From the NCBI GenBank assembly GCA_964016885.1, contig OZ024740.1, positions 89,838,001 through 89,902,000 on the forward strand: DNA of 64,000 nucleotides, in the 5' to 3' direction. The notes below the pieces were generated by a model. It was given only the letters and a program-made list of their open reading frames with translations. It did no database searches and was not told where the DNA came from. Position 1 is the stretch's first letter. The number at the start of each line of letters is the position of its first letter. The position numbers and the translations under genes were made by a program. The stretch is from Eledone cirrhosa. Lineage: Eukaryota. This document shows positions 1,931 through 55,399 of this stretch, piece by piece.

Positions 1931-2602
1931 AACATTTCAGGTTATCAATAATGTAGTGATAATATATCGTTACGTTAGAGATGAACAGCGTACGTGTAGG
2001 TTTGCTCAACGAGTATGAATTATATTCCGGAGAAAATGTAGAAAAGATGAATATAAAATGAAAGTGCTTTTTTTTAAAAGGAATTTATTAGGTATTGACA
2101 TATGTTTCTGTAACAGACGGAATACCTATGTTCAATTGGTCAAGTAGAGATTAAAATAGGCACTCCCAAAAATTCTTATTTAGATAAAATGAACCATTTA
2201 CTCATGGTATTCTCATTAGAAACCCTTTATATACTTGATTAGCAGTAAATTGAATTACCATCTGTCATATACTACCCATCTCTTCTCCCTCTATTACTAA
2301 TATAAATACTTCAATTTTTCTGATTTTATCCAATATATCCAACATTTCTGAAGAAGTGACAACTGATTATACATTTGCTATCGAATACTTGCTAACATTA
2401 TATGATTACGCAAGCTGCGGTTCATAGGTGTTCCGTCTGTTACAGAAACAAATGTCAATACCTAATAAATTCCTTTTAAAAAAAAAAAAGCACTTTCATT
2501 TTATATTCATCATTTCTATATATATATATATATATATATATAGAAATGATGAATATAAAATGAAAGTGCTTTTTTTTTTTTAAAAGGAATTTATTAGGTA
2601 TT
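1931..2602. mobile_element. Fold-back copies of the 3' UTR of the Naiad-like PLE at 48971-51236
   Basis: 1931-2130 matches 48971-49170 in the same orientation; 2131-2518 is the reverse complement of about 49075-49464; 2541-2602 is another short copy; (TA)n at the outer ends. Confidence 0.85.
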
Positions 2603-3346
2603 ATAATTTATTAGGTATTATAAACTAATTAGTTGGAGTGAAAATTTAAGTAAGTAAGTAAAAAATTTTCACTCCAACTAATTAGTTTCTGCAATGGGAT
2701 AAAGACAGTTACGTAATCCAACTGTCGAGAATTCATTGCGTCATCAGGGAGTCTATTCTCAGTTAAGTCTCCAGGCAATGCGCGGACACTGGCGGCTCAT
2801 ATAAAAATAATAATAATTCGGTAGATCAAACAGCTGGCGAGGACTGGATTCTATGTACCGAAATTCTCACTGCTTCAAGTCAAATGGCCGATTCTAAAGA
2901 ATCAATCACGTGACACAGAGGCTAGTTAGAAGGAATGGGATGGTTAGATGACTGACGCCTACTAACACCCCCCCAAACAAAAATTTTTTTTTAGAAGTGG
3001 TTTTGGCAAGTTTGCTCGACAAATCAGTGATTTGGAGATAAATATAGATAATTTAATATATCAACTAACATAAGCGCACAGATGCACGCCCATGCTAGCA
3101 AATACACAGGTTATGTCATAGTACCTAGATGGTTCAATGTAGGAGAATGCAGAACGGACCACGGTTACCGAGATATGGGTTTTTTTCCGGGTACCTTCAT
3201 AAACAAAGAGAGAGAAAGATATCTAATTACGTCAGGAAATGAATCTGGAAAAATGTTTTTACATTGAAAAATCCTGGGACTAATTTTCTCTTACAAATAT
3301 CCGAATGTTTTTCTACTACTTGTAAATATGTATATATATATATATA

Positions 3347-3610
3347 TGCGGAATACCAACAGTATGAAACAGAGATCTATCAGTTTATCTCCCTTTGTTT
3401 GTTGAAAAAAGAGTTTCAGCGACATAGTCACTACTTTAAAACAATAGCGTAAGGTCTTCAACATGCTTTTAATATAGTGTATTGTAAAATAGTGTATTGC
3501 AAATATAGTGTATTTAATATAGTATATTGCATATAGTGTATTGCAAAATACACTATATATACATTCATATATATATATAGCTATTTCAGAGCACCAATTA
3601 TAATTTCTGT
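3347..3610 (+). repeat. Diverged partial copy of the 330-bp hammerhead repeat at 19120-20068
   Basis: Shares GAAAC..AG.TCTATCAG.TTATCTCCC, GTCACTACT.TAAAACAATAGC and GCAAAATACACTATATATACATTCA(TA)nGCTATTTCAGAGC.CCAATT. Confidence 0.8.
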
Positions 3611-4449
3611 TCTGGTTGTTTCCGAAATAATTTATGACTGTTATGAAATATGAATACTTCAGAGAACACTATTTTTTCAAAAAGAAATTTAATGTTTTGT
3701 TATCTTTGAATATTTTCACGTTAAATAATTCATAATCTCTTATGTACACCAATACTCTGTTGTAAAATATTTATGATTTTATTGGCAAATCCGCATTCTT
3801 TTTTACATCGCATTACATACGGATGATTAAATGATGCTTTAAACGCACTTTCACACTGCTAGAAGTGTAATTATAAAAAAAACGTTCGCATGATTGGAAC
3901 ATTGCTAGGGATATTTCAAATGTGGATGTGGACTGCATTTTCTATACACATAGAATATCCTAATGATCCATTAGGATGCAGTTGGGTGCATGAATGTAGT
4001 TGTGTGATGGTCCACGCGGATGATTAGCTTTGAATTAAATGTAGATAATGGCGAAAGTACATTAATACATTTATAGTTGGTTTCTGTTAGAATTAGAATA
4101 TTTACTCCAGAGAGTTAAGATAGTATGTTTTATGCAGAGGTGTATACATATATATGAAGATAAACGTAGTTTGGAAATCATTCGAATAAATAAACTACAT
4201 TTATTAGCCTCTCAAATCTTGATATACGATTTGATATTGTCATCTAAAACAGTAATTGAAATTCATCAAAACATAATTTCACGCATGTTACTTTGTTAAT
4301 GTAATGGAATATTATAACAGAGTATACATTCGTGATGCATACTAGCCACAACCACATATCGAAAACAGATACTATGGAATCTAGAAAATATGTTTTCTTT
4401 ATTTCTGCTATAATAATGATTATGATTTTCTCCTGAATCTACGGAATTT

Positions 4450-5650
4450 ATAGCCTTGGTCTTTGGTTACTTCCCTGTACTTTGTGCGGCTAAGTAATGC
4501 CGAAGAATATCCATGATTGATTACAAAATTTCCTACGGTGGTCGTGATTCCATACAACGTTTTCATCAGATGATACAAATCTAATGTAAATTCTGATCGA
4601 TGTCATTCTCCCAATTAATCTCGAATTGAAAATTTCTATTAGGTTAACGAAAACAGCTTGTCTTACATGTGCTGCAGAAGCACTTTTGTTGGTGAACGTG
4701 AGGGTCGTAGACGATAGTGTGTAGTGTTTTGGCACAGGTCAAAAAACAAAACATTTATTGTACACCCTATCCAAAGGACCAGTCTTGTCATTCAATGTAT
4801 CACGGTGTATAACTATGATAATTATGTTATGATTATAGGTGTCTGTCGAATGATCAGTCATTTGCACGGTAATTTCCTATGCAGGTTATTGCGTGGAACA
4901 ACCAGATGGAACACTATTCGTCGAAAACATTACCTATGTGTGAGTTTTGGATTTAAAATTTCAAGGACATCCCCCATTGAAAAGAGAGTATTTCAAATAC
5001 AGAAAGTAATGTTACATGAATAATATTTGGGATGATTTAAATTATATGTGCATTGTTAGATATATAGAGTACTTATATTTGCCCATATATATAATATCAG
5101 ACAGAGACGGGAACCCTTGTGCTTCTTAAAGTCCTAGAAAGTGATTATAACCAATGACAAAGAGATATATCAGTTTCTGACGTCAGATTAATTCCGTGTA
5201 GAATCTTCCTCCAATAGAGGACATAGAATTCAGAAATGCTCGACATAATATCAGACAGAGACGGGAACCTTTGTGCTTCTTAAAGTCCTAGAAAGTGATT
5301 ATAACCAATGACAAAGAGATATATCAGTTTCTGACGTCAGATTAATTCCGTGTAGAATCTTCCGCCAATAGAGGACATAGAATTCAGAAATGCTCGACAC
5401 AATCACGGTGACGTCATTCCCATATCTCGACACACCAATTTCACGTCCTTGCTAAAGAGAGATATATGCCTTGCAAGAACTTCAGCTACTGTAATAATGG
5501 CACGAGAGCCAGAACTTACACAAAGGAGGAGACAGGGAAATAGTTCCGTCTGTAATGTAAGCACAGAATGTGAAATGGTAGAAAACTTTATTTCAGGAAT
5601 TTCGTCTGTGGTTCCAACAATTCTGCCTACTCTCCATTTAAAATAATCCT
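4450..5650 (-). pseudogene. Possible highly decayed cadherin/protocadherin-like relic
   Basis: Minus-strand pieces NDKTGPLDRVYNKCFVF...LSSTTLTF, TDEIPEIKFSTIS, VKLVCRDMG and LTSETDISL resemble LDRE, DxNDxxPxF and CxDxG motifs; many stops. Confidence 0.3.
5091..5398. repeat. Tandem duplication, two units of about 154 bp
   Basis: ATAATATCAGACAGAGACGGGAACC...GAAATGCTCGAC at 5091-5244 and 5245-5398, nearly identical. Confidence 0.95.
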
Positions 5651-53357: not shown

Positions 53358-54473
53358 TTGATATGTGTATGTGTGCATGTGTGCGTGCATCTGTTTGCTA
53401 GCACTCATTAATATAGTTTTGTGTCAATATTTCAGGAATATAAATGCGCTGTATGCCCGCGTATATGATTCTACACATATATAAAATACAGGCCATTATT
53501 ACATCCATATATATATATAGTATATGCATATGTATACATATATTATACATGAAAGTTTCGTGCTCATAATCACGCATTTGAATAATAGTATGATGATATG
53601 AGCAGATTTGTATTATGTGAATTATTGAACTGATAATCAAATCATGTGAGTTATGAATGTACTCATTTGTTTATCTTCAAAGTTCCATGTCGACGAGCAT
53701 GCAATGAACATTCATCATTAATATCTTTAATTCTCTCGTGTTTCATTTCTTAGTTATATGTAAAACTTACAATTGTATAAGATATGCAATTTTACTAAAC
53801 TCAGTTTACAACCCATAATACACGATTACGTCAAATTGTCGCATTCTTGACTGTAATTCTTATTCTTAATTTGGACTTATATGAAAAGTTTTCGTTTCGA
53901 CACGATGTCTACAATATTACATGAACGTACAATCAGACTAATTACTTCGTTTTACCAAAATTCTGACTTTATTACTTTTGTGGTAACCTTAAGAACATGA
54001 AATAATTTGTGACTGATATTATTCAAAATTCTCTTTCTAATGTATTATAAATGAATTATTTTAATTAGTCAGTGATATCGAGAGAGTGTTATATATAAAA
54101 TACAACACACAATCCCACCTACAGCCTAAAACACACACGCACACACAGACACACACACACACATACATACAGAGACACACACACACACACATATATATAT
54201 ATATATGGAAAAGAATGAAACGAAATTTCATTTCTCACTCTTAGTACGGCTGATACCTAAATATAAGTATGTATACGTACATACATATATGTGTACAGAC
54301 GTACAGTAGTATGTATATATATATATACATACATGCACACACATATATATGTACGTATGGGTTTACCGAACATTTATTATAATGTTCGGTTTGTTTGTAA
54401 ACAAACAGCCCGTATTACGCCATACAGTGCTCGGCATCCATCGTCGCCCTTTTGTTCAACACTGACACAGGAA

Positions 54474-54516
54474 CGATGTACCAGTTTCAAGCTTATTAGC
54501 TATTCTCAGCATCGTA
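54474..54516 (-). ncRNA. Hammerhead motif with mutated core (CTGAGAA)
   Basis: Minus strand: ACGATG-CTGAGAA-tAGCT-aata-AGCTt-GAAA-CTGG-TA-CATCGT. Confidence 0.6.
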
Positions 54517-54734
54517 TACCATTCTGTCAGATGATTGAACATTTGAAAGTGTATACTTTCCTTATGCATATTAAGTGTGAGAAATGAAATTTCGTTTCAT
54601 TCTTTTCCATTTATCGTGTTCGGTACGACCGGCCGACTAACTCACTCGATATGCAAATAGGCTGCTCAGCCGTTAATATGCATAAGGAAAGTATATACTT
54701 TCAAACGTTCAATCATCTGACAGAAAGGTATACA

Positions 54735-54771
54735 GTGCTGACGATAGCTAATAAGCTTGAAACTAGTACAT
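54735..54771 (+). ncRNA. Minimal hammerhead ribozyme
   Basis: GTG-CTGACGA-tAGCT-aata-AGCTt-GAAA-CTAG-TA-CAT; palindromic stem III, GUA triplet. Confidence 0.78.
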
Positions 54772-55399
54772 CGTTCCTGTGTCAGTGTTGTACAAAAGGG
54801 CGACGATGGATGCCTAGCACTGTACGGCGTAATTCGGGCTGTTTGTTTACAAACAAACCGAACATTATAATAAATGTTCGGTAAATCCATACGTACATGT
54901 ATACATATGTGTGCTTGTATGTATATATATACATACATACTACTGTACGTATGTACGCATATATGTATGTACGTATACTTACTTATATTTATATATATAT
55001 ATATATATAAAATATGCTAGGTAAATTATTGCATATAAGCCAGAAAGAGAATTGTAATGAATGTTTTCGTAATGTGTTTCGAGTTAGAGGCGGAGTTTTG
55101 ACATGACATCAAGTAGATAAGTACATGTCGAGTATGAATGGATTTGAAATAGAATAGCCTGCTGACAAAATAAACTAGGAATAATTTTAACAGCACAACT
55201 TGTAAATATATTAACCAACTTGTCTTAAAATGTGTATTGATCACATATTAATCATTGCTTGATTCATTGTGCGCAAAAAAATCCCACCAGCACCTTACAT
55301 GCGCATTAAGCAGGTCAGTAACTTGAGATGAACCCAGCATGGATCACATGATTTTGTCTCTGTTGTATTTCAGCATCTCACGTTTGTGAATGTCAGCAC

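Follow-up and report, generated by a model that had tools for sequence, protein, structure and literature searches.

One tail per pair: head-to-head Penelope-like element insertions in TA microsatellites of Eledone cirrhosa and their probable origin by twin priming

How do transposable elements come to lie head to head, two copies of one family joined centrally with both 3' ends facing outward into TA microsatellites? The question is raised by a stretch of 64,000 nucleotides from Eledone cirrhosa (contig OZ024740.1; G000:C1:89838001-89902000 of the 3.0-Gb assembly), referred to here as the window, in which an initial annotation described at least nine such loci of Penelope-like elements (PLEs). 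The window has a GC content of 34% and holds 126 TA tracts. Comparison with copies elsewhere in the genome reveals that the two arms of a pair almost always end differently, one with a family-specific 3' tail and the other without it, and that both arms derive from a shared template. Each locus is probably, though by no means certainly, a single PLE insertion made by coupled asymmetric twin priming.

All nine loci were recovered in a self-comparison of the window, and at each of them the minus-strand arm lies on the left, the plus-strand arm on the right and the 3' ends point outward. Polarity was read from the open reading frames (ORFs) of longer genomic copies in seven families, and from tail ends and hammerhead-like motifs in the non-coding families D and F9. 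The nine loci represent nine families: four Hydra-clade PLEs, three other PLEs with a reverse transcriptase (RT) and a GIY-YIG nuclease, and two non-coding tandem units. Both the number of loci and their assignment to several PLE families were thus borne out; two limits needed correction, the sixth locus beginning near 42711 rather than 42801 and the eighth ending near 48926 rather than 48836 (the tails had been omitted). The genome was searched with arm sequence from each locus (40 scored candidates per search, 20-30 loci kept), and the further DNA analysed comprised 400 kb flanking the window, which together with it make up 464 kb, and 60 targeted stretches.

Every one of the nine families has two discrete 3' ends, a long one with the tail and a short one. 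Tail lengths are about 41 nt in A, 56 in B, 38 in C, 89 in E, 102 in F1, 78 in F6, 80 in F8, 27 in D and 51 in F9; family B also has a variant long end that is 10-12 nt shorter. Genome-wide, 124 of the 127 pairs with both outer ends classed combine one long and one short end (A 7, B 29, C 35, E 10, F1 6, F6 13, F8 7, D 11, F9 6; binomial p 2e-33 against 0.5); three queries contained the tail, which fixes the class of the focal arm but not that of its partner. Eight end-class predictions, written beforehand for arms cut by locus edges, all held. The exceptions are L367 (short+short) and L092 and L154 (long+long). L367 is flanked by 46 nt of mirror-image sequence, so it is likely a DNA-level fold-back. 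Further apparent exceptions were dropped: the reference was too short at L137, L334 was mis-chained, and the arms of L025, L089 and L122 continue into tandem ORFs. Mirror-image flanks also accompany two long+short pairs, L222 (where they exceed 100 bp) and L095; in both, an older palindrome was probably hit at its TA centre by the insertion.

Within the window the rule is kept at eight of the nine loci, locus 2 combining a short end with a truncated arm:

1931..2131, minus strand: locus 1, left arm of F1 (Hydra clade); long end with tail of ~102 nt, adjoining (TA)n 1837-1931.
2129..2516, plus strand: locus 1, right arm of F1; short end, adjoining (TA)n 2517-2542.
12547..12700, minus strand: locus 2, left arm of E (Hydra clade); ends ~190 nt before the short end, within an RTE-type long interspersed nuclear element (LINE).
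12699..13400, plus strand: locus 2, right arm of E; short end (family tail ~89 nt), adjoining (TA)n 13400-13441.
14264..14485, minus strand: locus 3, left arm of C (young RT and GIY-YIG PLE); short end.
14483..14768, plus strand: locus 3, right arm of C; long end, ~38-nt tail with the first ORF codons; junction microhomology of 3 bp.
14926..16707, minus strand: locus 4, left arm of A (sister of C); long end, ~41-nt tail; internal deletion.
16708..18739, plus strand: locus 4, right arm of A; short end; broken ORF pieces at 16879-18071 with RT (PF00078) and nuclease region.
19121..19750, minus strand: locus 5, left arm of D (non-coding, retrozyme-like tandem unit of ~322 bp); two units, short end.
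19751..20066, plus strand: locus 5, right arm of D; long end, ~27-nt tail.
42711..42935, minus strand: locus 6, left arm of F6 (Hydra clade); long end, ~78-nt tail.
42935..43101, plus strand: locus 6, right arm of F6; short end; hammerhead core.
44576..44674, minus strand: locus 7, left arm of B (Neptune-type CX4CX2C linker); short end.
44674..45925, plus strand: locus 7, right arm of B; decayed nuclease-coding region, 3' untranslated region (UTR) with hammerhead core, long end with ~56-nt tail.
47097..47240, minus strand: locus 8, left arm of F8 (Hydra clade); short end.
47240..48926, plus strand: locus 8, right arm of F8; long AT-rich 3' UTR, long end with ~80-nt tail, (TA)n from 48927.
54207..54574, minus strand: locus 9, left arm of F9 (non-coding, retrozyme-like tandem unit of ~434 bp); long end, ~51-nt tail.
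54573..54990, plus strand: locus 9, right arm of F9; short end.

The arms of a pair also share their template. In family C, where 33 pairs were compared (3 with less than 20 bp of overlap were skipped), the 16,763 bp of overlap contain 50 differences between the arms, where 250 would be expected between loci; 132 minor alleles are common to both arms, against 34 expected, and 100 of the 101 subfamily sites that are informative show concordance. At L378 a single rare internal inversion junction is present in both arms; the complex family C pair at this locus (G000:C3:29725000-29732700) itself occurs twice in tandem. In the older families the arms differ by 1.8-3.3%, compared with 2.7-4.6% between loci, which argues that they are not being homogenised.

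Neither arm is consistently the longer. In the 57 pairs found with tail-blind queries, the arm that extends further 5' is the short-end one in 24 cases and the long-end one in 18, with 15 ties. Folding back can only reproduce sequence already present in the first strand, so neither arm is, as a rule, a simple copy of the other. Ties gather at a hotspot, one per family, where the two arms halt at an identical position (near 3150 in C and 1475 in F6); this spot is probably the transcript start. Same-base halts away from the hotspot (L366, L323, L404) favour a single RNA molecule as the template. Many junctions link points hundreds to thousands of bases apart, and nearly all are distinct, so they were formed anew at each insertion. 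The 89 junctions analysed include 37 resolved without extra bases, of which 23 show at least 2 bp of microhomology (17% by chance); the 52 apparent junction insertions are inflated by reference variants and were excluded from this count, and some inserts are local templated copies (L106, L108). The central joining of two cDNAs that the initial annotation envisaged gains support from both features.

Head-to-head pairing exceeds chance adjacency. Over the 464 kb, same-family neighbours at most 60 bp apart are head-to-head in 18 cases, tail-to-tail in 1 and direct in 14, against 10, 8 and 11 at larger distances. With an 80-bp stretch of family C as the query, the exact matches listed (40 full, 2 partial) include 13 head-to-head pairs and no tail-to-tail pair, and 18-19 of the roughly 27 family C insertion sites on C1 among the matches listed, about two thirds, are two-armed. 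A TA run of at least 10 nt adjoins 154 of 188 arm ends, compared with 4.3% of random positions, and is found at both ends in 67 of 94 pairs, as expected of two-sided insertion into TA-microsatellite targets. The description of the arms as mostly abutting (TA)n therefore stands, with a departure at locus 2, where the left arm falls short of the family short end by ~190 nt and meets just 8 nt of AT repeat; the host there is an RTE-type LINE, and its empty paralogs hold at most ATATA at the insertion spot. When the 464 kb were scanned without regard to family, 66 local inverted clusters emerged. In 26 of them one end is flush to TA while the other lies 16-125 nt off (0.8 expected), in 4 both ends are flush, and 36 are of other kinds.

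Interrupted TA on both sides makes 38 of the 94 pairs informative for target duplication. The duplication is direct in 13 (3.9 expected) and inverted in 3 (4.2 expected), and neither is seen in 22; that interrupted TA is duplicated directly suggests a staggered cut in TA that was already present. For the same reason, the idea that TA runs are made de novo at insertion is unsupported (L224 is ambiguous). A 14-bp target duplication accompanies one single-armed copy of B, and a sister sequence of 99% identity has an uninterrupted (AT)4. Empty sites of pairs, sought by paralogy, gave no clean case. The region 12547-20380 of the window is a nested pile of at least seven PLE-derived pieces divided by TA tracts; it begins inside the RTE-type LINE, whose continuation beyond the pile was not found within the window, and its arrangement suggests that insertions beget TA targets for further insertions. 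At both RT start sites of all families, TAT or ATA tends to adjoin the junction, a tendency taken without correction for the AT-rich background, and these bases may allow 2-6 nt of pairing with a TA primer.

Under coupled asymmetric twin priming, both strands of a TA repeat would be nicked by a single complex of PLE protein, and one cDNA would start at each of two RNA start sites, long (with the tail) and short. A single source transcript, and probably a single RNA molecule, would serve as template for the two cDNAs, which would stop at separate points or at the RNA 5' end and would be joined centrally by microhomology-type end joining. Observed here are that each family has two ends, that pairs follow the one-tail rule, that their arms share a template and neither is consistently the longer, and that junctions show microhomology and flanks direct target duplications. 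Two-strand cleavage with extension and two RT start sites bounding the tail are taken by analogy from in vitro work on another PLE, the Poseidon element PAc of Anolis, for which the available text of Frangieh 2024 (PMC11167929) reports AT-rich cleavage, cutting and extension of both strands, two start sites that bound the tail, dispensable hammerhead cleavage and a predicted dimer. We infer from these elements the coupling itself, the dimer, the single RNA molecule and the host end joining. PAc thus resembles the elements described here in its two start sites and AT-rich target; in its available text, that study draws no connection between the pair of start sites and the paired arms of an insertion, and the word 'inverted' occurs once, in a methods context.

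Several observations weigh against this explanation. The long+long pairs L092 and L154 are unexplained, and 28 further junctions have non-standard or run-on ends and were left unclassed, with L371 perhaps short+short. The sample consists of top-scoring matches, partly obtained with the three tail-containing queries. Single-armed copies are numerous; of the 73 examined, 37 have the long end and 36 the short one. Old families show less haplotype sharing, with 5 sites concordant and 9 discordant in F6, and 36 and 13 in B. None of the 8 sequencing runs listed contained half of the sequence words sought, and no read spanning a window locus, and no empty allele, was found in the four runs compared with part of the window; the small-share runs X1 and X2 count as no evidence. 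In the PAc study the start site is alike on both strands and, as far as its available text goes, coupling was not examined (Frangieh 2024, PMC11167929). Finally, sequence alone cannot reveal whether target DNA primed each of the two arms, or whether one RNA or two RNAs from a single locus served as template.

A stronger form of the proposal, for which we would claim somewhat less than an even chance, holds that PLEs insert by obligately asymmetric twin priming. A dimer would grip the tail of one RNA, which is copied twice, its subunits starting at the long and the short site on opposite strands of the cut TA; the head-to-head one-tailed unit would be the default of the class, retrozymes included, and single-armed copies would be insertions in which one arm was aborted. 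Hidden tiny arms at the 5' ends of the 73 single-armed copies number 2 by script, all of the tail type, with 3 more seen by eye, and are suggestive only.

The main rival, which we regard as unlikely, combines one target-primed strand with a template jump. Here the short-site cDNA would be made off-target, for instance self-primed by RNA, and the target-primed long-site cDNA would jump onto it and copy it, the far end being sealed to TA by microhomology or nuclease resolution; this comes close to the wording 'EN-mediated resolution' (EN, endonuclease) in the available text of Craig 2021. Such a route also yields one tail per pair, a single template and either arm as the longer, and short ends do finish in TA-like bases able to anneal to the target. 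However, it requires an extra priming route, both strands are extended in vitro according to the available text of Frangieh 2024, and 36 of the 73 single-armed copies end at the short site beside TA, which argues that this site was used directly at the target.

Self-priming or fold-back, in which a hairpin on the cDNA or on antisense RNA lets the second arm be copied from the first, was put forward in the available text of Arkhipova 2013, and we find it decidedly improbable. It accounts for the shared haplotype and for the near-perfect palindromes at natural hairpins at L104 and L105, and L367 looks like a genuine case. As a general route it is already contradicted: the tail-less arm is the longer in 24 of the 57 tail-blind pairs and the tailed arm in 18, many junctions bridge the long distances given above, and the antisense version needs start sites at both ends.

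Very little probability attaches to an artefact of assembly, to adjacency by chance, or to inversion or gene conversion acting later, at the DNA level, on cruciform-prone TA. TA-centred local inverted duplications do exist (2457-2602 of the window; L367), and the lack of a spanning read in the runs compared with part of the window would fit. Nevertheless, the arms of older families differ by 1.8-3.3%, the ends are asymmetric by a family-specific tail, direct flank duplication is commoner than inverted, and raw reads of another individual carry strand-switch joints within family B sequence at other loci, with one start each. The feature at 2457-2602 is a tail-to-tail palindrome centred on (TA)13, formed by a 60-bp inverted copy of the F1 short end that is 100% identical including private variants; it is likely a local DNA fold-back at TA and not a second insertion.

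Hardly credible is the explanation offered by the initial annotation, a break-healing system in which each side of a broken TA repeat would prime on its own, with ribozyme-cut RNAs as templates: both ends do lie in TA, and central microhomology and inserts are present, but about half of the pairs should then be of one end class (3 of 127 are), which refutes the model unless the two priming events are coupled, private variants and source haplotype are common to both arms, the ends lie away from hammerhead sites, and break healing is not needed where autonomous families encode a GIY-YIG nuclease and direct target duplication is frequent at the flanks.

The ribozyme evidence bears on this directly. 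The hammerhead core descriptor was recovered for B, F6 and F8 only, and these cores end 219, 59 and 66 nt upstream of the short end, respectively, and are read through, so those ends are not ribozyme cuts; in the available text of Frangieh 2024, cleavage is also unnecessary in vitro. Hammerhead-like motifs in D, F9, E, A, C and F1 were read by eye only, and an Rfam scan of the window returned no hammerhead, just spurious microRNA-type matches to TA and CA repeats. In the family E 3' UTR (13200-13290 of the window), a second hammerhead-like motif was seen by eye on the antisense strand, the sense one lying nearer the end.

The layout, the (TA)n preference and the one-sided tail are already described (Arkhipova 2013; Craig 2021). 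In their available text, Craig 2021 (PMC8557442) reports an inverted 5'-truncated copy at the 5' end, partial tandems (pseudo-long terminal repeats, pLTRs), a tail often at one end only and a TA bias, and names the origin of tandem and inverted structures and the microsatellite bias as unresolved, while Arkhipova 2013 (PMC3846280) gives the head-to-head arrangement as most frequent, places the tail on one inverted pLTR and proposes antisense self-priming. The two also record a (TA)n bias in Hydra and Naiad and a microsatellite bias in Neptune (PMC8557442, PMC3846280). The loci studied here share with those endonuclease-containing (EN+) units the inverted 5'-truncated layout, pLTR tandems, one-end tail and (TA)n bias; the tails differ, at 27-102 nt here against 30-40 in the units described in the available text of both papers. 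Here, the restriction to one tail per pair, the common template of the arms and the absence of a consistently longer arm are counted across nine families; on these points the available text of PMC8557442 and PMC3846280 is qualitative or silent. A search by title and abstract found no paper proposing coupled twin priming for PLEs; such a proposal may nonetheless be in print.

The main addition made here is therefore a constraint on mechanism. By these counts, neither independent priming nor simple fold-back can be the general route, and the question is reduced to one experiment, for which an in vitro system exists. Furthermore, pairs are very dense in this DNA, and repeat annotation could mistake them for miniature inverted-repeat transposable elements (MITEs) or hairpin RNA genes.

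In LINE-1 (L1) twin priming, two primers at one target site copy one RNA and the products are joined by microhomology. L1 produces an inverted, non-overlapping 5' piece, whereas here both arms overlap and hold the 3' end, the template having been copied twice. A few L1-like inversions occur here as well (L014, L015, L355).

The assignment of the coding families rests on domains and motifs. Copies of A and C match PF00078 above the cut-off and PF01541 just below it (E 2e-4 to 4e-4), and their linker, C-x4-C-x6-C, fits no listed clade pattern exactly. Family C is young, with copies mostly 97-100% alike, and includes a natural copy with an intact frame of 883 aa (G000:C1, about 89927798-89931249) whose first codons lie within the tail. 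Family B gave a weak RT match; its nuclease motifs were read off translations, and its linker fits CX2-5CxxC. These A/B/C-type elements have a single ORF with RT followed by a C-terminal GIY-YIG, partial tandems (pLTRs), 5' truncation, a tail and an inverted copy; tandem run-ons occur at L372, L376, L377 and L398. The translations of E, F1, F6 and F8 carry a CxCx5C linker upstream of GIY-YIG, DKT and RW-type motifs occur in frames beside E, F6 and F8 copies, and all four families insert into (TA)n; the C-terminal GIY-YIG-like domain, the linker and the TA insertion resemble the Hydra clade as given in the available text of Craig 2021, and the four families are assigned to that clade here by motifs.

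D (322 bp) and F9 (434 bp) form non-coding arrays of up to 6 units per arm and resemble non-LTR retrozymes (LTR, long terminal repeat; bioRxiv 10.64898/2026.07.22.740005) in their non-coding tandem units and their hammerhead-like motifs, seen by eye. They show the two ends and one-tail pairs of autonomous PLEs, and the available text of that preprint describes retrozymes as non-autonomous PLE derivatives; going by their sequence, the pattern in D and F9 is the putative footprint of PLE mobilisation.

Other PLE-related features were seen alongside these families. The family B ORF at L377:6228-6917 has a long asparagine-rich stretch resembling the N-rich inserts of Adineta Penelopes. In the window, further PLE nuclease-like frames lie at 32666-33484 and 39614-40510, one a GIY-YIG with a CX2-5CxxC linker, the other a frame in which LINE-like RT residues are joined to a Hydra-like nuclease region. 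Positions 48974-51436 hold a long F1 (Hydra) copy that has a single arm and lies on the minus strand; its RT and nuclease frames are broken, and its long end faces the F8 long end across a single TA tract. Lastly, 5091-5403 and 19113-19756 show, respectively, a 154-bp direct duplication of seemingly unique DNA and a 330-bp period, which is the D tandem unit.

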